Shown piece after piece: positions 43,969-63,370 of a stretch of DNA of 64,000 bases. Numbering within the stretch: position 1 is the stretch's first letter; each line of letters begins with the position of its first letter. The notes beneath the pieces are model-generated. The model made no database searches, was not told the origin of the DNA, and saw only the letters and a program-made list of their open reading frames with translations. Source of the DNA: Rhodothermales bacterium (lineage in GTDB: Bacteria; Bacteroidota; Rhodothermia; Rhodothermales; JABDKH01); the NCBI GenBank assembly GCA_963768565.1, contig CAVYIO010000015.1, forward strand, positions 30,059-94,058, in the 5' to 3' direction. Both the position numbers and the translations under genes were made by a program.

Positions 43969-44148
43969 CCATGAGAGTGACGTGCGATCGGATGGCTGTT
44001 GCCGGCAGCCGACCATCCTGGAGAGGGGGTACCACGTGAACTTCGGATGTGCGTAAGGAGTAATGCGCCGGCGAAGAGAGGTCTCGGGCCGCCCGAAGCC
44101 GCTTTGCAAGCGATGAGAGCGGGGTGGTTCAAACGCTCATACCCACGG
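43969..44148 (-). ncRNA. Candidate 6S-like rod-shaped RNA (~180 nt)
   Basis: On the - strand the ends CCGUGGGUAUGA / UCACUCUCAUGG pair at 10 of 12 positions using G-U, with a U-run following; inner stem CUUCGGG/UCCGAAG; intergenic between divergent genes. Confidence 0.4.
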
Positions 44149-44243
44149 ACCCCGGGAAGGGCCTGAGGTATAGATCACACCCCCCAAAACGGCCTCTCCC
44201 TCGCAACAGTCTTTTTCCAGCGTATACCGCGACCCACCGACAA

Positions 44244-45804: not shown

Positions 45805-46239
45805 ATGGCTGAAACGAGACGCAAGTTCCTGAACGCCCTCATCGGTACCGGCCTCGTCGGATGGCTCGCGTCCGTCCTGTACCCCGTCTTCTCGTTTCTC
45901 AAGCCACCCGAGTTACCTGAGGCGACCGTGAGTTCGCTGAAATGGGGCGCTGCCGCGGACTTCCCATCGGGCACCAGCGAGATTATAAAGTTCGGCCGCT
46001 CGCCTGTCTTGCTCATTCGGCTCGATAGCGGCGAATTCAAGGCGTTCGAAGCGACGTGCACCCACCTGGATTGCACGGTCCAGTTCAGGTCCGAAAAGAA
46101 AGACATCTGGTGCGCCTGCCACAACGGAGTTTACGATCTGCGTGGACTGAACGTGTCGGGTCCGCCGCCAAGGCCGCTGAGCCAGTATGCGGTGAACATC
46201 GTGGACGGCGAAGTCTTTGTCGCGAAGGCGGAGGCGTGA
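45805..46239 (+). CDS. Rieske [2Fe-2S] subunit of a Rieske/cytochrome b complex
   Basis: Tat motif 'TRRKFL' plus TM; ligands 'CTHLDC' and 'CACHNGVY'; 'GPPPRPL'. Confidence 0.93.
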   Translation: MAETRRKFLNALIGTGLVGWLASVLYPVFSFLKPPELPEATVSSLKWGAAADFPSGTSEIIKFGRSPVLLIRLDSGEFKAFEATCTHLDCTVQFRSEKKDIWCACHNGVYDLRGLNVSGPPPRPLSQYAVNIVDGEVFVAKAEA

Positions 46240-46241
46240 TC

Positions 46242-47324
46242 ATGCCAACCAGAAAGGAGAGAATGTTTGAATGGCTCGATGATCGGTTCCAACTGAGTCC
46301 ACTCATCGAGTTCATGCGCCACAAGATGGTGCCAATTCATCGGCACACGATCTGGTACTACATGGGCGGAGTGTCGCTCTTCCTGTTTATCGTCCAGCTC
46401 TTCACGGGCATCCTCCTGTTGCTTTACTACCAGCCGGGCGAAGAGAGTGCATACGAGAGCATTCGCTTCATCATGAACAAGGTGCCATTTGGATGGCTGT
46501 TCAGATCGATCCACAGCTGGGGCGCCAACCTGTTCATCTTCTTCATCTTCGTCCACATGTTCAGCACCTTCTTCACGGCGCGCATATCGCAAGCCGAGGG
46601 AGCTCGACGTGGGTGACGGGATTCATACTGCTCGTTCTTGCGATGGGATTCGGATTCAGCGGGTACCTGCTTCCGTGGAACGAACTCGCATTCTTCGCGA
46701 CCAAGGTGGGTACGGATATCGCGGGCGTGGTGCCGCTCATCGGTGACGCGATCAAGATCGTCCTGCAGAGGCGGACCGGACGTGACCGGAGCGACGCTGA
46801 CCCGGTTCTACGCGTTTCACATCGCACTGATACCTGCCATCTTTACCATCTTCCTGGGCATACACCTGCTGTTCGTTCAGCGTCAGGGTATGCACGAGCC
46901 GGAGTCGGTTGCGAATATGCCCGCGGAGCGGAAGAAGATGATTCCCTTCTTTCCGAACTTCCTGCTGCGAGACGTATTCGCATGGCTGATTGTATTGAAT
47001 CTCGTGCTGTTCCTTTCCGTCTTCTTCCCGTGGGAGATTGGGATCAAGGCCGACCTGTTCGCACCGGCGCCGGTCGGCATCCGGCCTGAATGGTTCTTCA
47101 TGTTCATGTTCCAGACCCTCAAGTGGGTGCCGCCGCATATTCTCGGCATGGAAGGCGAGGTGCTGGGCGTGATGGCATTCGCCGTTGCAGCACTGGCATG
47201 GATGTTGGTGCCCTTCTGGGAGATAAGAAGCCGTTCGACCGGTAAACTGAAACCAATGATCCTAATCGGGTTATTTGCGCTGTTTTTCATCATTGTGATG
47301 ACCATTATTGGATACGCCGTGTAG
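46242..47324 (+). CDS. Cytochrome b of a Rieske/cyt b complex, unsplit (two frameshifts)
   Basis: 'QLFTGILL', '[11 protein letters not shown]', 'GFSGYLLPW', '[11 protein letters not shown]', Qo motif 'PEWF'. Confidence 0.92.
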
Positions 47325-47349
47325 CCCGAAAGAATCAGTGAAACCGACC

Positions 47350-48603
47350 ATGACATACCGAATCGGACTCTGGATGCTGGCCGCCTTCGTGCCGCTCGCC
47401 CTGGCGACGGCTCAGGAGGTCCCGGAAAATCTGGCGGAAGACCAGTGCGTCGTCTGCCACGTCGACGCTTGAGGCGCTGCCGGAAGGCTTTCTCATGGAC
47501 AACGTGCACATGAAGCGGGATCTATCCTGCGTCGGGTGCCACGGGGGAGATGCGACCTCCGATGACGAAGAGGTGGCCCACGCCGGAAATTTTGTGGGCA
47601 TCCCGGCCCCGAAGGACATCCCGGATTTCTGCGGAAAGTGTCACTCCGACCTGCGCATTATGCGCCGCTTCCAGCCGAGCGCATCAACCGACCAGGTCAG
47701 CCAGTACTACACCAGTGTGCATGGCGAGAAACTGCAGGGCGGTGACCTGATGGTTGCTCAGTGTGCAAGCTGCCACACGTCGCATGCCATCCTTCCTGCG
47801 TCGGACGGTCGATCATCTGTACACCCGCTCAACGTTCCCGAGCCATGTGCAACCAGTGCCATGGAGATGCGGACTACATGGCCGGGTACGGAATTCGCAC
47901 GAATCAGTATCGGGATTATGCGAAGAGCGTGCATGGTGTCGCGCTGCTGGAACGACAAGACACAGGGTCACCGGCGTGTAACGACTGCCACGGCAATCAC
48001 GGAGCGATGCCGCCCGGAATCGACGCGATCGAATACGTCTGCGGCATCTGCCACGTGAACAACGCGGAGTTCTTCCACGAAACGAATATGGCGCGGGCAT
48101 TCAACGAGGAAGAGCTTCACGGCTGCGAAGAGTGTCACGGCATACACGACGTTGCGAAAACGACACTGGAGATGGTGGGCGTCGGTGACGAGTCCGTGTG
48201 TATCGCCTGCCATGACGAGGGAGACGAAGGCTACAAGGTCGCCGAAGAAATGTATGGGCAACTCTCCGCACTTGTCAGCGCGCAGGACTCCGCGAGAGTA
48301 CTCGCAGAAGAGGTCCATCGCATCGGGATGGACGACCTGGACATTAGCTATCTGCAGCGGGAAGTAAACCAGAGTCTGATCACGGCTCGGACGCTGGTCC
48401 ACACATTTGACCCGTCAAAAACGGGCGAAGTAACTACCGCCGGGATCGAGACCGCCCGCAACGCCGTTGCACTGGCGCGTACTGAGCTCGAGCAGTTCAG
48501 TTTTCGCAGACTCGGGTTCGGCGTGGCAACGCTGTTTATTACCATCCTGACGGTAGCACTTTTCTTCAAAATTAGGGAAATTGAGTCCAGCAAGGACTCG
48601 TGA
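47350..48603 (+). CDS. Membrane-anchored multiheme cytochrome c, 9 CxxCH (frameshifted)
   Basis: Signal peptide 'MTYRIGLWMLAAFVPLALA'; CVVCH, CVGCH, CGKCH, CASCH, CNQCH, CNDCH, CGICH, CEECH, CIACH across three frames; C-terminal TM. Confidence 0.85.
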
Positions 48604-48651
48604 TCAATAGGAACCAGACTTCGAAAAACAACCATCGTGGTGAATACAAAA

Positions 48652-49281
48652 ATGAAACGACTTACAACCCTTGCTGCATCGAGCATTTCGGTGCTTGCTG
48701 TTGTCCTCCTGTTCGTGGCGATGCAGGTCGACCGACCCACGTCGCGTACGACGTCGGACGACGGTGCTTCGTCTGTTCTCGCGCTCGAGGATGCAGAGTT
48801 CATCGGCGCGGCCAAGTGCAAGACCTGTCACAAGAAAGCGGAGGCAGGTGAGCAGTACCCAAAGTGGGAAGCCAGTGCACATGCAGGTGCATACGCCACG
48901 CTGGCAACAGACAAGGCGAAGGAGATTGCGGCAGCGAAGGGCATTGAGAATCCGCAGACAGCCGATGAGTGCCTCGCGTGCCACGTCACTGCTCACGGAG
49001 TTGCAGCAGAACTTCTCGGGCCGAAGTACAGTGTCGAGGAAGGCGTGAGTTGCGAATCGTGCCACGGTGCCGGCGGCAACTACTACAAGAAGAAGACGAT
49101 GGCGTCGATAACCTCGGGTGAGATAGAAGGTGCGTCGGTTGGCCTCGTAGCTCCGACCGAAGAGACCTGTGTTGCGTGTCACAACGACAAGAGCCCGACC
49201 TTTAAAGGGTTCGACTTTGCGGAGTACTCCGAAAAGATCGCACACCCGATTCCGGACGCAAAGAAAGCGGAATACAAGTAA
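48652..49281 (+). CDS. Tetraheme cytochrome c554-like protein
   Basis: 'FIGAAKCKTCH..QYPKW..AHA', CLACH, 'EGVSCESCHGAG', CVACH. Confidence 0.88.
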   Translation: MKRLTTLAASSISVLAVVLLFVAMQVDRPTSRTTSDDGASSVLALEDAEFIGAAKCKTCHKKAEAGEQYPKWEASAHAGAYATLATDKAKEIAAAKGIENPQTADECLACHVTAHGVAAELLGPKYSVEEGVSCESCHGAGGNYYKKKTMASITSGEIEGASVGLVAPTEETCVACHNDKSPTFKGFDFAEYSEKIAHPIPDAKKAEYK

Positions 49282-49315
49282 GCTTCTACCCACTACAGGT
49301 TAAGGGGGCTGGCCT

Positions 49316-50503
49316 GTGCTGAAGCGTTTATTCGTATCGATCCTGTTCACCGGGGCCCTCGTGGCCCCGGCGTTCAGTCAGGTTGAGTTTTCAGGTACGA
49401 CGCAGTCTTACCTGTATTCGTATGAGACGGCCGACGGAGATCAGAGGGGCGACTTCTACCAGGGTCTTCGCTTTCGGGCATGGCTCCACGACGCTCCGCA
49501 GCTCCAGCTGCGATCCTACATGAGGGTGGCGCGACGTGGCGATCCCGGAGAATGGGAAGCGCGCTGGTACAACGGATCTCTTCGATGGAAACCGGATTCG
49601 CGCGTCGATCTTCGGCTTGGCCGGCAGTTCCTGTACGACGGTGTGATCAACGCATCGTCCGATGCCTTCTCGGTGGCAGCAACACCCACCAAAGACATCA
49701 GGGTCCGTCTCGTCGCGGGACTGGAAACACCCCGTGACCGCGCGTTTGAATTCCTCTCTCCGGACGACGGCTATGTGCTGGGCGGTTTCGCGTCGGGCCG
49801 TTTCGCCAGACAGGCGAAGCTGGACGTGAGCTACTTCCAGCGTAACCGGTCGGATAATCTCGTCTGGCAGGTAGCAGGTGCTTCCTTGACCGGCCAACTG
49901 GTTGACAGGCTGACGTACCTCGCTCAACTCGACTACAATTTGCAGGATGAAGATTTCCAGCGCATGCGGTATCGACTCTCGTATGCGACGGGCCCGTGGA
50001 CCGTTTCCGGTGAGTTTCAGAGTCAGAAACCCCAGGTGTTCGAGGATTCCTACTTCAACATCTTCAGCCTGAATGCCTATCGGCAGATACGCGGCGCCGT
50101 CTATCGTCAATTCGGACAGTACCAGGTAGGGATACAGAACTACTATACGTTGTACGACGAGAGCGAGACTGGTAACGAAATCATCGGAACCCTCTCCGCC
50201 AGGTGGGGCACCATCGGCGTCGTGTACCAGTCCGGGTTCGGGGGCGAACGGATCGGGCTGTATGGTGAGGCCCGCTATGCACTGACACCGAGATTTGAGG
50301 CAAGAGCCCAGAGCAGCTATTATAATTTCCAGCGATATACCGCCGATTTCGATGAGGACGCGACCTCCTTTTCGGCAGGACTACGGTACAATGCCGGTCG
50401 CGAGATCACCGTTGATGCAGAGCTGCAGGAAAGCCTGAACAGTCTGTACGACAACGATCTGCGACTCCTGTTCAGGGTTTCCTACCGACTGTCTACCATC
50501 TGA
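49316..50503 (+). CDS. Outer-membrane beta-barrel (putative porin of a porin-cytochrome conduit)
   Basis: Signal peptide, Cys-free, alternating aromatic strands, 'LRLGRQF', terminal strand 'LRLLFRVSYRL'; flanked by multiheme cytochromes. Confidence 0.75.
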   Translation: MLKRLFVSILFTGALVAPAFSQVEFSGTTQSYLYSYETADGDQRGDFYQGLRFRAWLHDAPQLQLRSYMRVARRGDPGEWEARWYNGSLRWKPDSRVDLRLGRQFLYDGVINASSDAFSVAATPTKDIRVRLVAGLETPRDRAFEFLSPDDGYVLGGFASGRFARQAKLDVSYFQRNRSDNLVWQVAGASLTGQLVDRLTYLAQLDYNLQDEDFQRMRYRLSYATGPWTVSGEFQSQKPQVFEDSYFNIFSLNAYRQIRGAVYRQFGQYQVGIQNYYTLYDESETGNEIIGTLSARWGTIGVVYQSGFGGERIGLYGEARYALTPRFEARAQSSYYNFQRYTADFDEDATSFSAGLRYNAGREITVDAELQESLNSLYDNDLRLLFRVSYRLSTI

Positions 50504-50522
50504 TCAAGAAGAGAACAACGCA

Positions 50523-51446
50523 TTGAAATCCGGACTCGTCATACTGATTTCGCCGCTCGTTCTGGCGTTTGTTTTTCAGTCGCGCATGCCTGACGTCGCG
50601 CGCCCCGCGTCATCTGACGAACTGATATTCAGCCACGTTCTTCATGTGGATGAGAACGAGATGGCGTGCGAGGACTGTCATGGCGGCGTCGAGAGCAGCG
50701 TAACCGGATTGGACAACCTTCTGCCAGACATGGATGTCTGTGCCGATTGTCATGACGTCGACGATGACGACGAGTGCGCGACATGCCACACGAATCCGGA
50801 CGATCCGGAGAGCTCGGACTACATCACGAAATACAGTCAGAAGTTCTCTCACGAGAAGCATCTCGTTGGTGGCTTTGAGTGTCAGGACTGCCACGCGGCT
50901 GTACTCGTCGAAACGCCGACCGAAGAGTCATCTCTGCCGACGATGCTCAACTGCCAGGATTGCCACGAAATGGAATCGGCTTCTCTCGAATGCGCAACGT
51001 GCCACATGCCGGACGACGTGCTGAAGCCCGCCAGTCATGTCGCTGGATTCCTGCATGCTCACTCGGACATGGCCCAGACCGATGCGCATGCAGACCTGAA
51101 CGGTTTGCAGTGCCAGTCGTGTCACGACGATGACTTCTGCCAGGATTGCCACGAGGGAGACAACGTCGACAGATTTACGCACCCGCTCAACTACGAGTTT
51201 ACGCATGCGCTGGACGCGAGGAGCCTGGAGAAAGCATGTATATCGTGCCACACCGATCAGACGTTCTGCGTGGACTGTCACAACGACAACCAGGTCCTGC
51301 CGTTGAACCACCGTCCTGGCTGGGTCAACCGGGTCGATGGCGGCTTGCACCGGTTCGAGGCCTCGAGTGACCTGAACAATTGTATTGCGTGCCATGAGGA
51401 TAACGCAGATCAGATCTGCCAACCCTGCCACGGATCGCCTAACTGA
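50523..51446 (+). CDS. Acidic dodecaheme cytochrome c (c3/c7-like repeats)
   Basis: 12 CxxCH in 307 aa; 'FSHxxH' c7-type motifs occur twice. Confidence 0.9.
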   Translation: MKSGLVILISPLVLAFVFQSRMPDVARPASSDELIFSHVLHVDENEMACEDCHGGVESSVTGLDNLLPDMDVCADCHDVDDDDECATCHTNPDDPESSDYITKYSQKFSHEKHLVGGFECQDCHAAVLVETPTEESSLPTMLNCQDCHEMESASLECATCHMPDDVLKPASHVAGFLHAHSDMAQTDAHADLNGLQCQSCHDDDFCQDCHEGDNVDRFTHPLNYEFTHALDARSLEKACISCHTDQTFCVDCHNDNQVLPLNHRPGWVNRVDGGLHRFEASSDLNNCIACHEDNADQICQPCHGSPN

Positions 51447-51447
51447 T

Positions 51448-52467
51448 ATGCTGAAGTTGCGCAGTATTCCCGTTGCTGTACTCGTTGTGTTCGCTGCATG
51501 GCTGCTGGCCTCTTGCGCGGACACGTCGGATTTCCTTGTCGAGAAAACGCATCCGGATGGCTGGAATAGTGCGTCGTCGGAGACGTTCCACGGGAAGTTC
51601 GTTCTGGAGAGTGCCAGCCCTTCGGAAAGCTGTCAGTCATGTCATGGGCAGGACTATGGTGGCGGTACCTCCGGTGTATCCTGCGCCACGTGCCACACGG
51701 CGTATCCTCATCCGGAAGGTTTTGCCGTGCCGTCGTCGATGGAGTTCCACGAGGCGGTATTTCAGGACATGGCGGACTGGGATATCACGAAGTGTCAGAC
51801 CTGTCATGGTGATGACTACGGCCGGGAGATTATATCCGTGCAGGTGGGCGAGACCATCAGCTGTTTGACGTGCCACGCGGGCGATGACGGACCTGAAGCG
51901 TGCTCCACTTGCCACGGTGGCGCACAGAATGACGCTCCGCCGCAGGATCTGATGGACAACACCGCGACCACCGCCTCCGGTGTCGGTGCTCATCAGCAAC
52001 ACCTCGCTGCACAGATCGCGGAAGGCGTCGAGTGTTCGGAGTGCCACGTCGAGCCCGACGATTTTGACGACCCCGGACATGTCCTTGGTGATTCGACGCC
52101 GGGTATGGCCGAAGTCGTGTTCGGCACACTTGCCACACACGACGGCGAGACAGATCCCGTCTACGATTTCGCGACGTCGACGTGCGGCAACAGCTACTGC
52201 CATGGAGGCTTTGCCTTTGCGAAGGCAGATGCCGGGTCCAATTCGTGGGGCTACGCGGAGGACTTCATCCGCGGCAACAACCCGAACGTGGTCTGGAGTG
52301 CAGTGGGCACTGGCGAGGCCGAGTGCGGCACGTGCCACAGTCTGCCACCAATCGGTCACATTCCGGGCGCGTCCACGTGCTCCAATTGCCACGTCGGTGT
52401 CACCGACGCACAGAACAACATCCTCGACCCCACGCTGCACATCAACGGCGAGAAAGACCTGTTCTAG
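51448..52467 (+). CDS. Lipoprotein multiheme cytochrome with Geobacter-type CxxxxCH/CxxCH domain, 9 heme motifs
   Basis: Lipobox 'LLASC'; 8 CxxCH plus 'CGNSYCH'; 'VGAHQQHL', 'HING'. Confidence 0.88.
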   Translation: MLKLRSIPVAVLVVFAAWLLASCADTSDFLVEKTHPDGWNSASSETFHGKFVLESASPSESCQSCHGQDYGGGTSGVSCATCHTAYPHPEGFAVPSSMEFHEAVFQDMADWDITKCQTCHGDDYGREIISVQVGETISCLTCHAGDDGPEACSTCHGGAQNDAPPQDLMDNTATTASGVGAHQQHLAAQIAEGVECSECHVEPDDFDDPGHVLGDSTPGMAEVVFGTLATHDGETDPVYDFATSTCGNSYCHGGFAFAKADAGSNSWGYAEDFIRGNNPNVVWSAVGTGEAECGTCHSLPPIGHIPGASTCSNCHVGVTDAQNNILDPTLHINGEKDLF

Positions 52468-52643
52468 CACCCTGTTGGCAGGTCATTTGAACAGGCTCGC
52501 GTGAAGGACGATAGCTTGTGTAGTTCGCGTCTACGCCACCCGTCCACCAGCGCGGCGCGACCTTCTCGGTTGAGCATACTCTTGACTCCCTGCGCGAGGG
52601 TCAGGACTCTGCTTGTACCACCAACTGGTCCCACGGATATCCC

Positions 52644-53730
52644 ATGAAGAACCTATTACAACATATCACCGGCGTCGGATTGGTCGTCGTAGCAGCGGGA
52701 AGCCTTCTGGGCTTTGCAATTCTCCGAGGCGGCGGCTCTCCCGGCGGCTACACGGGAGCCCCAATCGATGGGCAGACCTGCACGAATTGTCATAGTTCGG
52801 CACCTGGTTCAGGATCTCTTACGATTACGGCGCCCGCCAGCTACACCCCCGGCGCCCCTCTGGATATCACCGTGGAAATGGATGAACCGGGCGAAACCGA
52901 CCACGGTTTTGAGCTTGTTGTAGTCGATGCCACAACCGGCAGCAACGTCGTCGGGACGATTACACTTGATCAGACGCTCGACGCCACGAAGTTTTCCCTC
53001 TCGAACACGCACGTGACGCACGACAGCCAGGGAGGCGACCCTGGTCAGTGGAAAGTGACGTGGACTCCCGGAGTGAGTGAGACGCAGGCGGTGACCGTGT
53101 ATGTCGCGGGTGCCTCAAAGACCTCCAAGCCCGACCTACAACGAGACATGGACCATCTCGCCAACTCTCCCCGTCGAGCTGTCCTCATTCGACGTTCGCC
53201 TCGACGGGCCAAACGCGATTCTGGACTGGCGTACCGAGTCCGAGTCCAACAACATCGGCTTTGACATCCAGCACGCTGACGACAGCGGCAGCTTTGAGGC
53301 AGTTGCCTTCGTTCCCGGAGCCGGCACGACCTCCGAGGCCCGTGAATACAGCTACACCATCAGCGACCTGCTACCTGGAACACATCGCTTCCGATTGCGG
53401 CAGATCGATCTCGACGGCACCACAACGGTGTCCGAGCAGATCGATGTTGCAGTAGGTGTACCGAATCAGTTCTTCCTTTCTGAGGCGTACCCGAACCCGT
53501 TCAATCCCGCGACGACGTTCGAATTCGCTGTGAGGCAGGACCAGGAAGTTCGGGTTCGCGTCTTCGACGAAATGGGTCGCCAGGTCTCGGATCTGTTCAA
53601 TGGAACGATGAGTGCGAATGAAACGCTCCGCGTCACGTTCGACGCCGCCGGACTGGCCAGCGGTACGTACATCATCCAGATGCAGGGCGCGGACTTCTCC
53701 GAATCCCGACAGGTTGTGCTGCTGAAGTAG
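52644..53730 (+). CDS. T9SS cargo: CxxCH-bearing reeler-like (choice-of-anchor V-like) domain plus CTD (frameshift ~53120)
   Basis: 'GYTGAPIDGQTCTNCH..YTPG..GFEL..VTH..WKVTWTP'; 'LPVELSSF..WRTESESNNIGF'; 'AYPNPFNPAT..GLASGTY'. Confidence 0.82.
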
Positions 53731-53758
53731 CCACCGATTGACAGTCCTGTACCAGGCG

Positions 53759-53789
53759 GGGGCGATCCACATCGTGGGTCGCCCCTTTT
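53759..53789 (+). terminator. Rho-independent terminator
   Basis: GGGGCGATCCAC-atc-GTGGGTCGCCCC-TTTT, 29 bp after the stop at 53730. Confidence 0.8.
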
Positions 53790-54099
53790 CTGTTAGCGCA
53801 TCGTCTGCGCTCGCAAGCTCGCCCCACCGTCCGCGTCCCGACAAAGAGCGCTAACACGTAAGGTATTTCACTACAAATGGTGTACGGCAAAGACTATTTA
53901 GTTTCTCGTCACTCGTCGATTATAATTACGTGTAGTGAAATCGACTCGCCATTAAAGCGCTGCACACACTGATCCACCGACAATTTGCGGATTGGAGAAC
54001 CTCGGAAAGGACTCAAAACCCGATTACCACCGGCACTGCCCAAACTTGTCTGACGTTGCGCCAGACCCGGGTCGAGCGCCGGAACGGTGCCAGTCTGGA

Positions 54100-56090
54100 A
54101 TGATGAACATGAGACAAATCTGCGCCTCGCTGCTACTGTTTGTGCTCCTGCCCCTGCTGGGCCCTCCGGTTCTGGCCCAGGAGTATGCCGTGGAGGAGGA
54201 CGAAGAGTGCATGATGTGTCATGATGACCGCACTCTCACAAAGGAGGTGAACGGCCGCACCATTTCCCTCTTTGTGAACTACCGCTCGCACGCGATTTCT
54301 GTACATGGCAAAGAGGGTTGCACATCCTGCCACTCGGACGTCGACGTGGACGACCTACCGCACGAGGATGAACTCGAAAAGGTCGAGTGCGACATGTGCC
54401 ACGACGACCAGTTCGCGGAGTACGAGCGCAGTCTGCACGGACAGGCGTTCAGGAGGGGTCGCTACCTGGCTCCGACGTGCCTGTCGTGCCACGGCAAGCA
54501 CAACATGCGGTCGTCGACGGATGAGAGATCGCCCACGTTCGTGATGAACATCCCGAATTTATGCGGGAGGTGTCACAAAGAAGGAACACTCGTCTCTGAG
54601 CTCGCAGGAATAAGCCAGCACAACGTGCTCGAAAACTACTCGCAGTCGATTCACGGAGACGGTCTGTTCCGTCGCGGACTGACCGTCACTGCTGTGTGTA
54701 CCAGTTGTCATAAATCTCATGACATCCTGCCGCACGAGAGCCGGGCGTCCTCGATCAATCGGGCCAATATTGCATCCACGTGCATGAAGTGCCACGCGCA
54801 GATCGAGAAAGTGCACGTGAAGGTGATTGACGGTAAGCTCTGGGAAGAGAAGCCGCATCAGCTACCGATTTGCGTCGATTGCCATCAGCCACACATTGTT
54901 CGGAGGGTCTTCTATACCGAGAGCTTTCCCGACAGCCAGTGTCTGTCGTGTCATGGCGACCCGGACTTCCAGAAAGAGAAAGACGGAGAGCAGGTTTCCC
55001 TTCTACGTGGACGCCGACGAGATCGCGGGTTCTGCACACGGTGGAAATGCCTGTTTCAAGTGTCATACGAACGTATCCCGTTCGAAAGACCCGGTTTGTA
55101 TTGGGAGTGGACCGGTCGACTGCTCTATGTGCCATTCCGCACAGGTTGAGGAGTTCACCGGAAGTGAACACGGTCGACGGGTGGCAGAGGGAGATTCGAC
55201 GGCGCCAAACTGCACGGACTGTCACGGTTCTCACGGCACACTCTTCAAGGAAGATCAGGCTTCGCCAACGTTCACCCGGAATATCCCTGCACTATGCGGA
55301 CAGTGTCATAGCGACGGACAGAAAGCGGCGGCCGGCTATCAAGGGGGCGGAGCATCAGATCGTCAGCAACTACACGATGAGTATCCACGGCAAGGGCTTG
55401 CTCGAGAGTGGACTCATGGTGACGGCAACGTGTGTCAGCTGCCATACCGCCCACAGCGAAAAGCCCATCACGGACTCCACGTCTACGGTCTTTCCCGCAA
55501 ACATTGCAGCAACTTGCGCCCAGTGTCACCTGGGCATCTATGAAGAGTTCAAGAGCAGCGTGCACAGCCCCACCGTTTCAAAGAACACGGACGCGAAGCT
55601 ACCGGTGTGCAACGACTGCCATCAGTCTCACACGATCAAGCGGGTAGACGTAGGGGACTTTCGACAGGAGATCCTCGATCAGTGCGGCAAATGCCACCTT
55701 GACGTGACGGAGACGTACTTCGACACGTTCCACGGGAAGGTGTCCAAACTCGGCGCCGAGCAGACGGCGAAATGCTACGACTGTCACGGAGCGCACAATA
55801 TTTTGCCTCCGACAAATCCGGACTCAAAGCTGAGTCGAGCCAACGTCGTGGAGACGTGCAAGGCATGTCACCCCAACTCAAATCGAAAGTTTGTTGGCTA
55901 CCTGACCCACGCCACGCACCACGACAAGGACAAGTACCCATATCTGCACTACACGTACCTCTTCATGACGACGTTGCTCGTCAGCGTTTTTGCTTTCTTC
56001 GGTGTGCACACGCTCCTCTGGATACCCCGGGCCGTCAGGGAGCGCCAGAAGATTGAGAGAACAAAGAATGGCGGGAAAGCAAATGAGTGA
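54100..56090 (+). CDS. Membrane-anchored multiheme cytochrome c, ~19 CxxCH, CbcA-like (two frameshifts)
   Basis: 9+4+6 CxxCH in three consecutive frames, with recurring 'SxHG..CxxCH' doubled-motif repeats; C-terminal TM; overlaps the start of the cyt b gene. Confidence 0.85.
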
Positions 56091-57024
56091 TCCCTCTGAC
56101 GGATCTTCGATCGTTGAACAAGCGGGAGTTGATTCTCCTGTTGAACCGGCAACCACAGACGCGCCACAGCCGGAACCCGCGCCGGACGCTGAGCCGGGGC
56201 GATTCTACGAACGGTTTGACGGCTATTCCCGGTTCTTGCATCTGCTGGTAATCGTCAGCTTCCTGTCGCTGGCCATCACCGGAATGACGATCAAGTTTTC
56301 AGGGGTCGGAGTATTCCAGACGCTGTCAAGAATCCTGGGCGGATATGAGGTGACGGGATTCATTCATCGCGTTGCGGCCATTATCACCTTTGTGTACTTC
56401 TTCCTGCACGTGAGCTACCTGGTGAAGAACAAGCGGAAGACGAAGACTTCGATGCGCGGGATGTTATCAGGCGAAGACACGTTGTGGTTTCGCAAGCAGG
56501 ACATCATCGAGTTTGGGCAGACGGTGAAGTGGTTTCTCGGAATCGGTCCACGTCCTGGTTATGGCAGATGGACCTACTGGGAAAAGTTCGACTACATGGC
56601 CGTGTTCTGGGGCGTGTTGGTAATCGGTAGCAGCGGCATGCTGCTCTGGTTTCCGGAGTTCTTCACGCGTCTTGGAATCCCGGGATCCTGGATCAACGTC
56701 GCCACGATCATCCACAGTGACGAAGCACTTCTCGCAACAGGGTTCATCTTCACGGTCCATTTCTTCAACACACATTTTCGTCCGGATAAATTCCCCATGG
56801 ATCCCGTGATCTTTACGGGTCGCGTGGATTTACATGAATTGAAAGAGGACCGGCCCCGTTTGTACGCGCAACTGTTGGAATCAGGCAAACTGGAAGACGC
56901 CATCACCGGGCCGCCACCGGCGTGGCTTGAGCGATGGGCGCGCGTGTTCGGAATGACGGCTCTGACCCTGGGCATACTGACGATCGTTATGATCATTTAC
57001 TCGATGGTGTTCCTCTACCGCTAA
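56083..57024 (+). CDS. Diheme cytochrome b, FdnI/HydC-type (CbcB-like quinol oxidoreductase subunit)
   Basis: 'RFLHLL..AITG', 'IHRVAA..LH', 'YGRWTYWEKFDYMAVFWG', 'IHSDEALLA..VHFF'. Confidence 0.88.
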   Translation: MSDPSDGSSIVEQAGVDSPVEPATTDAPQPEPAPDAEPGRFYERFDGYSRFLHLLVIVSFLSLAITGMTIKFSGVGVFQTLSRILGGYEVTGFIHRVAAIITFVYFFLHVSYLVKNKRKTKTSMRGMLSGEDTLWFRKQDIIEFGQTVKWFLGIGPRPGYGRWTYWEKFDYMAVFWGVLVIGSSGMLLWFPEFFTRLGIPGSWINVATIIHSDEALLATGFIFTVHFFNTHFRPDKFPMDPVIFTGRVDLHELKEDRPRLYAQLLESGKLEDAITGPPPAWLERWARVFGMTALTLGILTIVMIIYSMVFLYR

Positions 57025-57071
57025 AGCCAGTATGTCGTTTCTGAGACAACCGAATCACCTCCTTAATCAAA

Positions 57072-59705
57072 GTGGCTGTCGGCATGTACCGGGAATCAGA
57101 GGTGGCATTTTCGACGAAGTTGGCCGGGAAGTTGCTCACCATCATCGGTCTGGCCCTGGTTGGGGTGGTCGTCGCCGGTGCAGGAAAACCGGATGGATCT
57201 CCGGCCCCGTCCCCAATCTCGATCTCGATACTTGAAGGGCGTGGAATTGATTTTCTGCCGGCGCACGAACCGTACAGCTCTGCACGCGGCAGTTCGTGGT
57301 TGCCGGTAGCGGATGCCCGACATTCGTCCATCCGGAGTCGCGCGTCTGTGGCGGACCTGGACGCTTGCCTTGACTGTCATGATGACGACAGCATGACGAT
57401 GGAGAGAGACGGTCGAGAGGTCTCTCTCAACGTGTCGCCGGAAGCCTATGCCGCTTCACCTCACGGGAAGATCGATTGTGTAGAGTGCCACGTCGGGTAT
57501 GACCCGGATGAAGAACCGCACAACGAGAACGCGCAGCCGGTAGACTGTGCAACCTGTCACAACTCGGCGTCGAGAGCCTTTCGTGCCAGTGGTCACAGGA
57601 CGGACCTGTCATGTTCGTCGTGTCATTCGAATCTCCATACGAGAGGTGGCACGCGTGCGACGGTCGCGACGTGCGCCAGCTGTCATGATGATGCTGTGCG
57701 CGATGTCAAGGCTAGTCTGCACGCCAGCGGAGACTTCGGACCGACATGTCTCACCTGTCACGATTCTCACCGTGTCGCACTGGCAAACTCAGCCACGTGT
57801 CTATCGTGTCACGGAGAGCGCGAGTTTGTGCATGACCATATCCTGGACGAGGACGTCGAGGCGGTACTGAAGTACAGCGACAGCATTCACGGCGACAACA
57901 TTGAGTGCAATGACTGCCATGCAAGCCACAAGGTGTTGTCGACAGACGACCCTGGATCGCCCGTTTCGAGAAAGAACGTTGCCAGCACCTGTGCCACGTG
58001 CCACGACGACGCGGCTGACGAATACCTCGCGTCCGAACATGGCAGGGCGCTGCAGTCCGGCTTTGAAGGGGCTCCGACATGTACGGACTGTCATGGCGAG
58101 CACGACATCCATCAGATAACGGATAGTGAGTCGCTCGTAAGTCGGCAGCATGAGGTTGAGGTGTGCGAAAGCTGCCATCTGAACACGAAGGAAGTCACCG
58201 CCCGGATGACACATACCACGGGCTTTGTGGCGGGCTACAATCTGAGCGTACACGGACTCGCGTCGGCCGGAGGAAACGCCGACGCTGCCATCTGCAGCGA
58301 CTGTCACGGAGGACACCAGGCGGTAAAGGCAAGCAACCCCAACTCGAAGATCAACAAGTTCAACATTGCTGCAACCTGTGGACATTGTCACGACGAGATC
58401 GAGACGGTGTTCGAAGGCAGCATTCATGGAATCGCACTTGCAGACGGCAATTCGGATTCGCCCACGTGTACGACGTGCCACTCCGAACATGCGATCATGG
58501 AACACACGAGTTCGGCATCACCTGTGGCAGCCCTGAACGTCTCCGAGCAGGTGTGTCGGCCATGCCATGACTCGTACAAACTGTCGACCAAATATGGATT
58601 TCCGTCGGACCGGCCCAAGTCGTTTGGTGACAGTTATCACGGTCTCGCCACGAGGTTCGGATCGGACGAAGCGGCAAACTGCGCAAGTTGCCATGGTGTG
58701 CACGACATCTTACCATCGTCGGACGAGCGATCGAGAGTGTTCCCCGGGAATCTCGAAGTGACGTGTGGAGAGTGCCATCCGGGAGCCACCGCAAATTTCG
58801 CGCGCGGTTCTGTTCATGTTGTCCGCACGCCGAGCGGCGATTCGCTACTGTACTGGATCTCGACGATATACATCCTGGTGATCATTGCGACGATCGGGGC
58901 CATGGGGGTCCACAACATGTTGGACTGGGGTCGCAAGATGATCAACCATTACCATGAACGACTCCAACCGCCGCCCCGTGGAATTCCCGGCGTAGAGCGG
59001 AAGAGAGGTCTCTACGTTCGCATGACGGTGAACGAGCGAGTTCAGCACGCGCTGCTGGCCGGTACCTTCATCATGCTGACCGTCACCGGATTCATGCTCA
59101 AGTTTCCGGATGCCTGGTGGGTCGTCTTTCTCCGGGACAACTTCGGGGTCGGTGTGTTTGATCTTCGAGGAATACTGCACAGAGGAGCGGCGATTGTCAT
59201 GGTGGGCGACTCAGTCTACCATCTCTACTACATCATCTTTACGAAACGGGGCAGGCAGTTTGTAAGCGATATCATGCTCCGCGGCCAGGATTTTCGGGAC
59301 ATCATACAGATGATGCGCTACTACCTCGGTGCTGCAAAGAATCGACCACTTTTCGATCGCTTCAACTACGTCGAGAAGTCGGAGTACTGGGCCCTCATCT
59401 GGGGCACCATCGTGATGACTGTAACGGGAATTATTCTCTGGTTCGAAAACCAGTTTATGGGACAGTTCTCGAAGCTGTTCGTGGACGTGAGTGAGACGGT
59501 TCACTACTACGAGGCCTGGCTCGCATTTCTGGCTATTGTGGTGTGGCACATCTACTACGTGATATTCAACCCTGACGCCTACCCCATGAATTTCACATGG
59601 CTGACAGGAAGAATCACGGAAGAGGAGATGGAGCACGAGCACCCGCTCGAGTTGCAGCGGCTGAAGCGTGAGGAAGAGGAGAGGAGTCGCGAAACGGAAG
59701 AGTGA
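57072..59705 (+). CDS. Fused multiheme cytochrome c (17 CxxCH) / cytochrome b, CbcL-like
   Basis: 17 CxxCH followed by 'ERVQHAL..TG', 'LHRGAA..YH', 'RFNYVEKSEYWALIWG', 'VHYYEAWLA..WHIY'; start uncertain. Confidence 0.9.
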   Translation: MAVGMYRESEVAFSTKLAGKLLTIIGLALVGVVVAGAGKPDGSPAPSPISISILEGRGIDFLPAHEPYSSARGSSWLPVADARHSSIRSRASVADLDACLDCHDDDSMTMERDGREVSLNVSPEAYAASPHGKIDCVECHVGYDPDEEPHNENAQPVDCATCHNSASRAFRASGHRTDLSCSSCHSNLHTRGGTRATVATCASCHDDAVRDVKASLHASGDFGPTCLTCHDSHRVALANSATCLSCHGEREFVHDHILDEDVEAVLKYSDSIHGDNIECNDCHASHKVLSTDDPGSPVSRKNVASTCATCHDDAADEYLASEHGRALQSGFEGAPTCTDCHGEHDIHQITDSESLVSRQHEVEVCESCHLNTKEVTARMTHTTGFVAGYNLSVHGLASAGGNADAAICSDCHGGHQAVKASNPNSKINKFNIAATCGHCHDEIETVFEGSIHGIALADGNSDSPTCTTCHSEHAIMEHTSSASPVAALNVSEQVCRPCHDSYKLSTKYGFPSDRPKSFGDSYHGLATRFGSDEAANCASCHGVHDILPSSDERSRVFPGNLEVTCGECHPGATANFARGSVHVVRTPSGDSLLYWISTIYILVIIATIGAMGVHNMLDWGRKMINHYHERLQPPPRGIPGVERKRGLYVRMTVNERVQHALLAGTFIMLTVTGFMLKFPDAWWVVFLRDNFGVGVFDLRGILHRGAAIVMVGDSVYHLYYIIFTKRGRQFVSDIMLRGQDFRDIIQMMRYYLGAAKNRPLFDRFNYVEKSEYWALIWGTIVMTVTGIILWFENQFMGQFSKLFVDVSETVHYYEAWLAFLAIVVWHIYYVIFNPDAYPMNFTWLTGRITEEEMEHEHPLELQRLKREEEERSRETEE

Positions 59706-59873
59706 CCCCTGTCGAGATCGGCTCAACATTCGGTCCAGCCAGAAAAACCTGATTCAACCCGGGTCTTTTCTGAAGCTTTGGCGTTTGGTACGCCGCCCGC
59801 GGTATACTAGTCGTGGGTTGGTTTTAAGGGACACGGGCACGCTGCCGTTCCTTGAGAATATCAACTACTGGAT

Positions 59874-61904
59874 ATGAACCGATTTCGATCTCTTAGTGGA
59901 AAGATTTCCGTGTGGCTCAAGCGCCCCGGAAGCAAGCGCAAGCTGGCAATCCGCTCGTCAGTAATCGGTGTTCTGGCGATTCTCTTCGTGGGTCTCTCGG
60001 CCGAGTACACGTCGCGACCAACGTTTTGTCCCACTTGCCATTACATGCAGCCGTACTACGAGAGCTGGCTTGCGGCGCCGGCTCACGAGGAGGTGTCGTG
60101 CGTCACGTGTCATTTTCCACCGGGGATTGCCGGGACAATACGCGGTAAAGTTGAAGGACTAATGCAGGTGGTGAACTACCTGGGCAGCTCGTACACGCGC
60201 CGAAAGCCCTGGGCAGAGATTGATGACGCCTCGTGTCTCCAGAGCGGTTGTCATGATACGCGACTTCTCGCAGGCAAAGTCGGTTTCAGGGGAGTTGCGT
60301 TCGACCACGAACCGCACCTCGGAGATCTCCGGCGAGGTAAAGAACTGCGATGCACCAGCTGCCACTCGCAGATCGTCCAGGGCGACCATATCCGGGTGAC
60401 GGAGACCACATGCTATCTGTGTCATCTCAAGCCCGAAGGCAACATTGAAACGGCCGAATTCGAGCGAGCCTCGGACTGCACGACCTGCCACGTCTGGGAT
60501 TCGGTCACGGTCGAACAGCCGACAGAGATCACCGCGTTCCACACGGAAGTTCTTTCACGCGGACTGGAGTGTAACCAGTGTCACAGCAAGACGGTCATGG
60601 GAGACGGGTTTGTCCCGCCCGAGAACTGCTTCGGCTGTCACAGCGAGCGGGACCGCCTTGACAAGATCGACGACCTGGATCTCATTCACCGTGAGCACAT
60701 CTCCGAAAACAAGATCGAGTGCATCCAGTGCCACCTCCAGATTCAGCACAAGATTCAACGTGTGAATCTGGAGCAGGAACTCGATTGTGCGACCTGCCAC
60801 AGGAAGACCCACAGGGAGCAAGTGATGCTCTTCACGGGAGAGATCGGTGATGGCGATTCAGCGCCCAGTGCGATGTTCGCAGCCGGCCTTGACTGCGCCG
60901 GTTGTCATGTGTTTCACGAAGACATCGTCGGAGCCGACGATGATCGCATAGCCCAGCCGCAATCCTGTGAGAATTGCCATGGAGCGGGCTACAACCGGCT
61001 CCTGCGCCTCTGGAAGCAGGGCGCAAATGCAAACCTTGTCGACTTCAGCCGAACCATTCGGACGGTAGAGAATGCGGCCAGAAATCGGGGCGCCCAGACC
61101 CGGGAGAAAACGGATCCCTTCATTGAGAAAGCGAAGAAGATTCTCCACGTTGTGCAGACGGGGCAGCCGGTTCACAATGTGACGTTCTACGACCAGCTTA
61201 TCCGTACCGGCTACACAGATCTGGAGAAGGCCGTTCAGGCGGCAAACCTGGGCGTAAGAGTGCCGCCGTATAAGAGTGCGCCAACGGTACCCGGTCAGTG
61301 TGCGAACTGTCACACCGGTATCGATCGGCTTTCGGTCCAGCACGAAGGACTGACGTTCTCCCATGAGATCCATGTGGACATGCAGGGCGTTACGTGCGGG
61401 ACGTGCCATTCGAATGCCGTACGACACGGGCAGGTGGTGCTGACGATGCAGAACTGCAATAGCTGTCACCACAAGGCGACGCCGCCGGAAGTCACGTGCG
61501 AATCCTGTCACGAAGAGGCTGCAAGCATCTATGCCGGCACGTATCTCGACAAGGATACACCGGACTATATGTTTGAGGAAGATGTCGAGTGCGTGGATTG
61601 TCACATCCCGGATTCAAAGGTCATTCGCCCCACCGTTGCCTCGTGTCTCGATTGTCACGATGAGGGCTACGACTCCGACGCCGAGGATTGGAAAGTGGAA
61701 GTCACCGACCTTACCCAGTCGATTCGGTCGCTGATGACTGGCATACCGCGCTCCAGGCGTGACGCAGCGGCCTACGTGACAGCGAGAAGGGTCCTGGCCG
61801 ATTTCGAGAAGGGTGCAGCCGGTGGCCTTCATAACTATGAGTTGACGAGCGAATTGCTGCTCGAAGTGAAGGGTGGACTGGAAGCAATGGGCGTCGGTCA
61901 GTAG
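59874..61904 (+). CDS. NapC/NirT-type membrane-anchored multiheme cytochrome c, 18 heme motifs
   Basis: N-terminal TM then 'YTSRPTFCPTCHYMQPYYESW..H.EVSCVTCH' (NapC/NirT N-domain with CxxCHxM); 17 CxxCH plus 'CLQSGCH'. Confidence 0.88.
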   Translation: MNRFRSLSGKISVWLKRPGSKRKLAIRSSVIGVLAILFVGLSAEYTSRPTFCPTCHYMQPYYESWLAAPAHEEVSCVTCHFPPGIAGTIRGKVEGLMQVVNYLGSSYTRRKPWAEIDDASCLQSGCHDTRLLAGKVGFRGVAFDHEPHLGDLRRGKELRCTSCHSQIVQGDHIRVTETTCYLCHLKPEGNIETAEFERASDCTTCHVWDSVTVEQPTEITAFHTEVLSRGLECNQCHSKTVMGDGFVPPENCFGCHSERDRLDKIDDLDLIHREHISENKIECIQCHLQIQHKIQRVNLEQELDCATCHRKTHREQVMLFTGEIGDGDSAPSAMFAAGLDCAGCHVFHEDIVGADDDRIAQPQSCENCHGAGYNRLLRLWKQGANANLVDFSRTIRTVENAARNRGAQTREKTDPFIEKAKKILHVVQTGQPVHNVTFYDQLIRTGYTDLEKAVQAANLGVRVPPYKSAPTVPGQCANCHTGIDRLSVQHEGLTFSHEIHVDMQGVTCGTCHSNAVRHGQVVLTMQNCNSCHHKATPPEVTCESCHEEAASIYAGTYLDKDTPDYMFEEDVECVDCHIPDSKVIRPTVASCLDCHDEGYDSDAEDWKVEVTDLTQSIRSLMTGIPRSRRDAAAYVTARRVLADFEKGAAGGLHNYELTSELLLEVKGGLEAMGVGQ

Positions 61905-62313: not shown

Positions 62314-63370
62314 ATGACCAGACAAATCTCAGTCATAGCCGTGGTCGCGGTAGTTCTACTCGGCATCATCTTCCTGCCGGTCGACGTGCCATACAGCATT
62401 GCCGTTCAGGGTCGTGTCGTTCCGGCGAAGGAATGGTCGCTTTCTCGCAGTCGCAATGACGCCATAGAGACGACGGTGCGTGACAACGAGCGCGGCGGCG
62501 TGACGCAATACACGGTCAATCGTTTTGCGGGCGGCGATGCAGCTCGTCTCACGATTGAGTCAGGATTGCAGTCGGGCTCGACCGTGCACGAGGGCGATAC
62601 CGTAGCCTCGATTTACTCGAATGAGATCGCTCGCCAGTACTCAGAGCTTTCGGGACGACTGAACATGGCCACCGCGTCTCTGGATCTCTATGCCACAGGA
62701 GAGAAAGAGGCTATCGTTGAGGAAGAGCGGGTCAAGGTGTTGCAGGCCGAGGAGCTTTCCCGGCAGCACCAGCTGGAGTTGAATCGCCTCCGGAGACTGC
62801 GGAGGCGAAAGCCTCATTTCAGAACAGGAACTCGAGTTGGCCGAAAGCGAGCAGCGCGTTCTCGAAGCGGGTGTTGAAGTGGCACGTGCGCGCTACGAGT
62901 CCGTCAGCTCCGGCGCCAAACCCGAGCAGATGGAGCTCACGCGAACGGAAGTTCGATCACTGCAGGAAGAGATCAACGAGATTACCGAGCGGCTTCGTCT
63001 TTCCACCATTACGAGTCCGCTGTCAGGTCGGGTGGCGCGCTCATTCGGAGCCGACACGCTCGTTTCCATTTACGACACGACCGCTTATGTCGTGATGATG
63101 ATCGTTCCCCTGCATCGTCGCGCAGTGGTCGGTATCGGGGATACGGTGCTGGTCTCCGTCGCCGGGCTGGCCGATGACGTGAGCGCCGTAGTGAGCGAAC
63201 TGGGCGATGAGGTGCACATTGCACATGGGCAGGAGGTGCTTCTCGTACACGCACGAATCAGTAATCCGCCGCGCTTCCTCTTCCCCGGTTCGTCTGCGCG
63301 ATGCCGAATTCAAGTCGGCAGGGTGCCGATCTGGGAGTTCATCCGTCAGAGCCTTTCGGTGTCGGCATGA
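62314..63370 (+). CDS. HlyD-like membrane-fusion/periplasmic adaptor protein (frameshift ~62805)
   Basis: N-terminal TM, 'VHEGDTVASI', coiled coil, 'ITSPLSGRV', 'PGSSARCRI'. Confidence 0.7.

Follow-up and report, generated by a model that had tools for sequence, protein, structure and literature searches.

Can a single locus encode a path for electrons from the quinone pool to the cell exterior in a group of bacteria usually treated as aerobic heterotrophs? The question is raised by positions 45805-61904 of a 64,000-nucleotide stretch (hereafter the window) of contig CAVYIO010000015.1, from a marine-sediment member of the Rhodothermales (assembly GCA_963768565.1). Twelve genes, all on the + strand, follow one another here over ~16 kb (Table 1) and encode 89 heme-c motifs (87 CxxCH and two CxxxxCH, with frameshifts read through). 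The island appears to hold a porin-cytochrome system of an already known type, and its role is probably outward extracellular electron transfer (EET), in which respiratory electrons would pass from (mena)quinol to extracellular or insoluble acceptors such as Fe(III) and Mn(IV) oxides. What looks new is the co-occurrence, in Rhodothermales, of the outer-membrane barrel with a nine-heme homologue of the surface reductase OcwA that carries a sorting domain of the type IX secretion system (T9SS). A complete quinol-to-surface heme path would add sediment Rhodothermales to the mineral respirers or partner electron exchangers.

An earlier sequence-only reading of this DNA described twelve co-directional genes, 89 hemes counted by hand, three b-type cytochrome domains, a Rieske protein and a beta-barrel, in a T9SS-bearing genome resembling Rhodothermia or Bacteroidota. 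That description stands. The motifs per gene, in order, are 9+4+12+9+1+19+17+18 = 89, and the intact single open reading frames (ORFs) of a same-genus genome, G001, give identical counts. The ORF pieces as assembled contain 86 CxxCH and two CxxxxCH; motif 89 is that of the first heme in the 9-heme gene, where it occupies a third frame (47350-47470). Pfam recovers the b-type domains and the Rieske protein, and AlphaFold the barrel. The genome encodes SprA (contig C38, SprA_N 298 bits) and 77 ORFs with a C-terminal sorting domain (custom hidden Markov model (HMM), whole genome); T9SS is characteristic of the Bacteroidota-Chlorobiota group. Proteins from Rhodothermales/Rhodothermia metagenome-assembled genomes (MAGs) are the closest homologues of the barrel, and the nearest related loci have the same origin. 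The heme-motif density of the island is far beyond chance: no window ORF of at least 90 amino acids outside it has more than one motif, and it accounts for 85 of the 136 CxxCH in the 3.27-Mb genome (counted in ORF pieces with at least two motifs). A chimeric contig is ruled out by even G+C across the window and by collinearity with two contigs of G001 (88-92% nucleotide identity), where each gene is unbroken. Genes for heme-c maturation are present: contig C35 encodes CcmC and CcmE, and contig C23 has a CcmF-type gene.

The outer-membrane module consists of the barrel, a 12-heme cytochrome and a 9-heme lipoprotein, and the 4-heme and 12-heme genes flank that of the barrel. The AlphaFold2 model of the barrel (mean predicted local distance difference test (pLDDT) 89.9, predicted template modelling score (pTM) 0.79) shows 24 strand elements connected by short turns; two of the elements are short. 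All 395 residues belong to the signal peptide or the barrel, and no other domain is present. In ushers and TonB-dependent transporters, whose barrels have 24 and 22 strands respectively, a plug occupies the interior. Compared against 48,161 solved chains, the model is closest to the FimD usher (Z 19.9 over 319 residues) and to Cir (Z 19.8), and TonB-dependent transporter barrels score Z 19-20 over ~330 residues; alignments to 22- and 24-strand transporter and usher barrels span 319-339 residues. Foldseek returns generic barrels only, with a best TMq of 0.55-0.57 to FimD. There is no NCBIfam match, the only Pfam match is a weak one to Porin_4, and no model of either collection connects the barrel to Geobacter porins. 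Hence, the possibility raised earlier that the barrel is an unrelated transporter finds no specific transporter to point to. The predicted lack of a plug is consistent with a barrel filled by a partner protein, without proving it.

The two multiheme partners carry the signals expected of such a module, a Sec signal on the 12-heme protein and a lipobox on the 9-heme protein, and a surface location of the latter is predicted. The profile of the 12-heme family finds a match in the Geobacter dodecaheme GSU1996 (3ov0_A, E 2.4e-22). The family has ten invariant histidines outside the motifs, as would be expected of distal ligands in bis-His electron-transfer hemes. The lipobox LLAS-C of the lipoprotein is conserved in its homologues, and in 25 of 34 rows S/A and D/E occupy the first and second positions after its Cys, an arrangement that presumably resembles the acidic surface-export signal of Bacteroidota lipoproteins. 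The Geobacter CxxxxCH/CxxCH domain model TIGR01904 scores 25.1 bits, just short of its 27-bit cut-off. The AlphaFold2 model of the lipoprotein is poor (pLDDT 54.9, pTM 0.29, from an alignment of 30 rows).

The association of these three genes extends well beyond the window. A word index of 5.8 billion proteins contains 49 relatives of the barrel. An HMM search gives 985 cluster representatives at E<=1e-3, 490 at 1e-10 and 208 at 1e-30, and a profile search for homologues gives 41 matches, all hypothetical proteins and one of them new (P0050). Look-alike clusters in the atlas are commonest in Calditrichota, Zixibacteria and Thermodesulfobacteriota, and a remote branch of the barrel holds Ignavibacteriales and Bacteroidota MAG proteins. 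One genome per species was scanned for related loci, and their gene content was counted by tblastn with the twelve island proteins. The resulting 55 loci belong mostly to Rhodothermales and Calditrichia MAGs, with some distant ones under other labels; many lie on short contigs, and 22 have at least 20 kb of sequence. The triad of barrel, 12-heme and lipoprotein genes is found at 43 of the 55 loci and at 21 of these 22. Calditrichia barrel homologues, at 37-49% identity, stand with the same 12-heme and lipoprotein genes. The quinol modules recur in varied orders and orientations in two phyla, which argues for a joint function with the triad. On the evidence of gene neighbourhood, the triad forms the conserved core, to which the quinol modules are added as interchangeable accessories. 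The barrel has a rare and patchy distribution among Rhodothermales, occurring in 11 of 285 species genomes (6 of 172 of high quality) from five families. Labels cluster by phylum in the barrel tree (3 changes for Rhodothermota vs. 7.5 in shuffles), and the window row groups with three Rhodothermales rows.

The survey also revealed variants of the triad. In a distant branch (L052-L067), whose MAGs have other or doubtful taxonomic labels, the barrels share 21-27% identity with that of the window, and NrfH-like and CbcL-like genes often accompany them. Six of its loci (L055, L057, L059, L060, L062 and L065) are labelled 'uncultured Alphaproteobacteria', and L055 groups with Calditrichota in the tree. 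In Calditrichia the lipoprotein homologue can be enlarged, with 16+1 heme motifs in 497 amino acids at L020 (12816-14306; start script-called) and 11+1 in 361 amino acids at L026, L027 and L029 (starts script-called, may be wrong). The Rhodothermales genomes G005, G009 and G018 each have two barrel matches, one of them partial in G005 and G018, and some lineages of this order may carry two conduit copies.

The island encodes up to four candidate modules facing the quinone pool, and hydropathy and N-terminal sequences give the topologies expected of its proteins. The first is a Rieske/cytochrome b unit of the bc1/b6f type, whose two subunits adjoin with PF00355, PF00033 and PF00032 all over their cut-offs. 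The Rieske protein (PF00355, 45.6 bits, cut-off 20.3) has the boxes CTHLDC and CACH and a transmembrane (TM)-like segment at residues 11-29. The cytochrome b scores 72.6 bits on PF00033, 49.5 on PF13631 and 32.9 on PF00032 in the window, and has seven TM-like segments; its intact G001 copy scores 234.8 bits on the NCBIfam cytochrome b6 model and 210 on ExtP, below the equivalog cut-off of 290. The unit comes without a cytochrome c1 or f and is followed instead by the 9-heme protein with its C-terminal anchor, a putative stand-in for these subunits. In G001 the 9-heme protein is an ORF of 416 amino acids with 9 CxxCH, a TM-like segment at 387-405 and a weak match to ExtM (E 5.7e-6). The next gene encodes the 4-heme c554-like protein (PF13435, 65.4 bits, cut-off 20.8), which adjoins the barrel at 18 of the 55 related loci and is a probable periplasmic relay.

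The other three modules lie downstream of the triad. The 19-heme protein (661 amino acids and 19 CxxCH in G001, TM-like segment 619-637) adjoins an FdnI/HydC-type cytochrome b (PF01292, 49.3 bits, cut-off 30.1), with which it is paired in related loci too, and the two may form a split CbcL-like unit. The 17-heme fusion unites both parts in one chain, with the architecture of CbcL, MtrH and MtoC. Its PF01292 match (48.7 bits, cut-off 30.1) covers residues 648-829, four TM-like segments follow the N-terminal multiheme domain, and the G001 copy is intact and 94% identical. The 18-heme protein matches PF03264 (32.3 bits, cut-off 24.1) and, over residues 20-91, the NrfH structure 2j7a_C (E 6.1e-8), with a TM-like segment at 24-42. 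By these scores it is a domain-level member of the NapC/NirT/NrfH group and not an NrfH, because it scores 65.1 bits on the equivalog TIGR03153, below the cut-off of 134.2. The DmsE/MtrA decaheme model TIGR03508 (cut-off 192.2) gives 90 bits on the 19-heme, 65.4 on the 17-heme and 19.1 on the 12-heme protein.

T9SS-sorted cytochromes occur both in the island and elsewhere in the genome. The monoheme gene downstream of the lipoprotein combines a sorting domain with the presence of SprA in the genome; its intact G001 copy scores 73 bits on NF041895 (cut-off 42) and 34.8 on TIGR04183 (cut-off 23), and the window piece 33.3 on PF18962 (Por_Secre_tail, cut-off 27). At 5 of the 55 related loci a T9SS-sorted multiheme protein stands beside the triad, and a systematic HMM scan added none. 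These proteins have 917 amino acids and 9 CxxCH at L045, 873 and 9 at L020, 591 and 8 at L014, 481 and 7 at L037, and 521 and 6 at L028. All five exceed the cut-off for Por_Secre_tail and three of the five that for MtrC/MtrF domain II/IV. Outside the window, contig C4 of the same genome (10108-12878, -) encodes a full-length homologue of the 917-residue protein, split by a frameshift into pieces with 4+5 CxxCH, with a PKD-like domain and a Por_Secre_tail of 38.5 bits. A further gene on contig C13 (33676-35139) is an 8-heme ORF with a T9SS sorting domain in another frame. Its G001 counterpart is a single ORF of 481 amino acids with 8 CxxCH and the sorting domain, and the C13 gene probably encodes an 8-heme T9SS protein.

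The C4 nonaheme links the island to a known reductase. All eight homologues examined have 9 CxxCH and a C-terminal sorting domain, and the family profile matches OcwA (6i5b_A, E 4.8e-19) at OcwA residues 11-43, 158-197 and 247-500. The second match, 6qvm_A, is annotated as 'multiheme cytochrome cf' and is, we take it, a surface cytochrome of another Gram-positive iron reducer. OcwA is the nonaheme cell-surface terminal reductase of Thermincola potens (PMC6703420, excerpt). The C4 family shares nine CxxCH with OcwA and is homologous to it over most of its length, and a reductase role is predicted. The family differs in its ~870-980 amino acids, its added PKD/Ig-like and sorting domains and its diderm host. 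Its heme domain occurs in 11 of 285 Rhodothermales genomes, 9 of them shared with the 11 barrel genomes and spread over four families, although these genomes are related and not independent. The two non-overlapping genomes on each side include genomes that are 70-90% complete and a congener of a positive genome. As judged by homology, the C4 nonaheme is the most likely outermost reductase of this organism.

A further proposal, made more tentatively than that of outward transfer itself, is that T9SS-exported and -anchored OcwA- or MtrC-like multihemes perform the last step of EET together with a porin-cytochrome conduit in Rhodothermales and Calditrichia. Surface display of such proteins uses type II secretion in Shewanella, and Gram-positive bacteria place surface hemes by wall anchoring. 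If the proposal is true, T9SS would be a third route for surface respiratory hemes besides Shewanella type II lipoprotein secretion and Gram-positive wall anchoring, and uncultured Rhodothermales of marine sediments would be facultative respirers of metal oxides. If T9SS delivers terminal reductases, tools such as FeGenie would under-count electroactive members of the superphylum, and T9SS mutants should lose mineral reduction.

On another reading, the cytochromes would form a network within the periplasm that serves soluble acceptors, be it sulfur compounds, humic-type shuttles, nitrite or hydroxylamine, or selenite or tellurite, and the barrel would be an ordinary diffusion porin. For the cytochrome b the nearest match is ExtP, from the selenite/tellurite operon of Geobacter, the barrel has its weak Porin_4 match, and OcwA supports growth with both soluble and insoluble substrates (PMC6703420, excerpt). 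However, a Pfam scan of the window proteins finds no catalytic reductase subunit among the island genes. A terminal periplasmic reductase elsewhere, which the sequence-only reading had named as a possible refutation, is on this evidence not taken to explain the cytochromes. A catalytic octaheme was considered and rejected, as the sole CxxCK of the island sits out of frame and is absent from the intact G001 ORF. The recurrence of the barrel with the 12-heme and lipoprotein genes in two phyla also speaks against a diffusion porin, and a modelled plug-less barrel of 22-24 strands with short loops would be far wider than one. The lipobox and T9SS sorting signals would place hemes beyond the periplasm. 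A network for soluble acceptors is thus quite improbable.

If the island serves outward transfer, four steps can be envisaged. As many as four alternative modules, whose domains are observed and whose activity is proposed, would draw electrons from quinol at the inner membrane: the Rieske/cytochrome b unit with the anchored 9-heme protein, the 19-heme protein with its separate FdnI-type cytochrome b, the CbcL-like 17-heme fusion and the NrfH-like 18-heme protein. Long periplasmic heme chains and the 4-heme c554-like protein would then carry electrons across the periplasm. In the third step the barrel would hold the 12-heme protein, with the lipoprotein at the outer face, as a porin-cytochrome conduit; the architecture is observed, the assembly presumed. 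Finally, T9SS-exported, surface-anchored cytochromes may deliver electrons to the acceptor, the candidates being the in-locus monoheme choice-of-anchor-V protein, the C4 OcwA-like nonaheme and the probable C13 8-heme protein.

The conduit might instead run inward. Its electron donors would then be Fe(II), reduced minerals, a cathode-like surface or a partner cell, and the electrons would end in the quinone pool or at heme-copper oxidases, possibly with the Rieske/cytochrome b unit operating in reverse. Uphill electron flow through such units occurs in acidophilic iron oxidisers. The genome has three heme-copper oxidase subunit I loci, one of them beside an alternative complex III, and CbcL/MtoC-type proteins are found in both metal reducers and metal oxidisers (PMC6295460, excerpt). 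On the other side, RuBisCO was not found in the genome, which is 80% complete, and the surface nonaheme that is co-distributed with the barrel is homologous to a terminal reductase; these two points make outward flow the preferred direction. In addition, the four parallel quinol-facing modules recall the inner-membrane quinol-oxidising set of Geobacter, which is branched and tuned to acceptor potential (bioRxiv 10.1101/2021.04.15.440034, excerpt). Inward flow is considered unlikely.

Several points weigh against outward transfer through a conduit as the function of the island. The direction of transfer cannot be read from sequence, and the heme-copper oxidases and alternative complex III indicate that the organism can respire oxygen and might take electrons in. 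OcwA also reduces soluble substrates, so that an OcwA-like surface protein is no proof of mineral reduction. MtrB (6r2q_B) matches the barrel with Z 15.8 over 323 residues, at rank 27; this likeness is below that of generic 22-24-strand barrels (Z ~19-20), so that the fold alone gives no tie to a cytochrome conduit. The complex predicted for barrel and 12-heme protein gives weak support to their pairing, with a score of 0.48. The best of 3 controls scores 0.00, at least 80% of contacts are shared among the three runs, and the partner pLDDT is at least 69. In calibration, 58 of 80 solved complexes attained the mark, as did 2 of 110 mismatched pairs; those attaining it with 0.60 or less were 7 of the 80 solved complexes and both mismatches. 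One or more of the four inner-membrane modules can be seen in the available sequence at only 17 of the 55 related loci, many of which are on short contigs; of the 22 loci with at least 20 kb, 13 have such a module no more than 10 kb away. A Rieske-type cytochrome b stands beside the barrel at only 4 (1 of the 22). The earlier interpretation of a full path from quinone pool to exterior in one locus is supported, with qualifications. The quinol modules, periplasmic multihemes and outer-membrane module are there, but the likeliest outermost reductase is on another contig, so that the island may lack part of the path. Lastly, the pathway of this strain would be broken if its frameshifts, which hit five genes, were real.

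Frameshifts split the cytochrome b, 9-heme, T9SS monoheme and 19-heme genes as well as the downstream HlyD-like gene. Relative to G001, single-base insertions lie at approximately 46581, 46602 and 46767 (cytochrome b), 47466 and 47839/47841 (9-heme), 53135 (monoheme), 55001 and 55347 (19-heme), and 62806. About ten uncompensated insertions in 16 kb could mark the island as a decaying relic, its pathway inactive in this strain though kept in relatives. The window was compared with four public runs from four studies, three of them marine sediment metagenomes. Their contigs are mostly 90-99% like the window and so come from relatives, not from the source; the highest share of sampled window words in any public run is 0.17, and no RNA run is among those listed. 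In the relatives' contigs the extra base is absent at 46580 and 46606 in three runs, at 47468 likewise in three, and at 55343 in one contig. At 46765 it is absent in one run, whereas another run covering the position shows no such difference, and the extra bases at 47839/47841 are missing in only one of the four runs; these two sites leave some room for a relic.

Frame-breaking indels are not confined to the island. An ORF at ~31396 is shorter than its counterpart in G001, the ATP-dependent DNA ligase at 36097-37830 (+) is in N- and C-terminal pieces, and a heme-copper oxidase subunit I occupies two adjoining frames at C38:82247-83570, which suggests that indel errors affect the assembly as a whole. 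Although it consists of only 46 contigs, the genome scores no more than 80% for completeness. Together with the intact contigs of relatives, these observations make assembly errors the most likely cause of the window frameshifts. The frame pieces jointly still encode every heme motif, and decay of the pathway in this strain is very unlikely.

Among the closest parallels to the proposed outward conduit are those of Geobacter. Conduits such as OmaB/OmbB/OmcB and ExtABCD of G. sulfurreducens are likewise encoded with a barrel gene beside a periplasmic multiheme and a lipoprotein multiheme. The 12-heme protein shares its c7-repeat family with GSU1996, and the lipoprotein falls just under the cut-off for the Geobacter domain. 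The island differs in its order of barrel, 12-heme and lipoprotein, and its T9SS-sorted cytochromes have no Geobacter counterpart. The existence of the ExtABCD conduit in Geobacter is documented (PMC12133095, excerpt). The Geobacter ext operon with ExtP also places a Rieske/cytochrome b unit beside a porin-cytochrome system, but the island cytochrome b remains under the equivalog cut-off (210 vs. 290) and its c-type subunit is a 9-heme protein with a C-terminal anchor. Shewanella MtrCAB is alike in passing a periplasmic multiheme through a wide barrel to a surface lipoprotein multiheme. MtrB, however, has 26 strands and ~650 residues as against 22-24 strands and 395 residues, and the MtrCAB combination of an MtrA/DmsE decaheme with a 26-strand barrel is absent from the island.

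The inner-membrane modules show a similar mix. The 17-heme fusion shares with CbcL, MtrH and MtoC an N-terminal multiheme domain and a C-terminal HydC/FdnI-type cytochrome b, a likeness of architecture. CbcL has 9 hemes as against 17 in the fusion, and the second copy in the island is split into two genes. CbcL homologues with 3-23 hemes are known from 15 phyla, including Bacteroidetes and Calditrichaeota (PMC6295460, excerpt). ImcH is partly of the NapC/NirT type, as is the 18-heme protein, but has three helices and 7 hemes where the latter has one helix and 18 hemes.

The relatives suspected earlier in Ignavibacteria-like bacteria do exist, in Calditrichia and Ignavibacteriales, and this lowers the novelty of the locus. 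A Caldithrix MAG has been described as carrying a pcc-like system, and C. abyssi as having a homologue of the pcc porin (Fortney et al. 2018, PMC6137239, excerpt), and porin-cytochrome clusters were noted in Ignavibacteria (Shi et al. 2014, via PMC6137239, excerpt). These pcc-like clusters belong to the same superphylum as the island, and the barrel family reaches both Calditrichia and Ignavibacteriales. The available portion of Fortney et al. 2018 contains no mention of Rhodothermales, of a Rieske/cytochrome b linkage or of T9SS cytochromes. Among the papers listed, searches of open-access articles and preprints found no report of EET or multiheme clusters in Rhodothermales and no relevant report on T9SS with multiheme cytochromes or EET.

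The positions of the island genes are given in Table 1, with two terminator-like hairpins (consensus matches only) after genes 8 and 11 of the twelve, which suggest that the island is transcribed as three units. A promoter scan with the sigma-70 consensus, which may not apply to this group, was uninformative, with 9 sites vs. 6.6 expected.

Table 1. Genes and hairpins of the island and the gene directly upstream (window positions)
Feature	Position	Strand	Evidence
YdjM-family inner-membrane protein, directly upstream of Rieske gene	44124-45353	+	PF04307 110.5 bits
Rieske [2Fe-2S] subunit, 144 aa, N-terminal membrane anchor	45805-46239	+	PF00355
Cytochrome b (b6 and subunit IV fused; 359 aa in G001), three frame pieces	46239-47324	+	PF00033, PF13631, PF00032
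9-heme cytochrome, signal peptide, C-terminal membrane anchor, three frame pieces	47350-48603	+	1+3+5 CxxCH
4-heme cytochrome c554-like protein	48649-49281	+	PF13435, 4 CxxCH
Outer-membrane beta-barrel, 395 aa, 22-24 strands, plug-less	49316-50503	+	AlphaFold2
12-heme periplasmic cytochrome, c7-type units, 307 aa	50523-51446	+	12 CxxCH, signal peptide
9-heme lipoprotein (8 CxxCH + 1 CxxxxCH)	51448-52467	+	lipobox LLAS-C
Monoheme choice-of-anchor-V protein, T9SS sorting domain, two frame pieces	52644-53730	+	NF041895, TIGR04183
Terminator-like hairpin after T9SS monoheme gene	53758-53786	+	13-pair stem, 9 G-C pairs, T-rich tail; consensus match only
19-heme cytochrome, signal peptide, C-terminal membrane anchor, three frame pieces	54100-56090	+	9+4+6 CxxCH
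FdnI/HydC-type cytochrome b (b561 family)	56068-57024	+	PF01292, four TM-like segments
17-heme cytochrome fused to FdnI/HydC-type cytochrome b	57084-59705	+	17 CxxCH, PF01292
Terminator-like hairpin after fused gene	59795-59818	+	9-pair stem; consensus match only
18-heme cytochrome (17 CxxCH + 1 CxxxxCH), NapC/NirT/NrfH-type N-terminal module	59874-61904	+	PF03264

Downstream of the island, an HlyD-type membrane-fusion protein (62314-63370, +) is split at ~62806 and intact in G001 with 352 amino acids, and a VTC (polyphosphate-related) domain protein follows at 63301-64000 (+); no link of either to the cytochromes was seen. Upstream, the region of the YdjM-family gene is covered by the G001 alignment and is thus conserved in that genome. 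A large protein with SBBP beta-propeller repeats is encoded a short way upstream of the island (41253-43351, -), with a DUF7948 piece in another frame.

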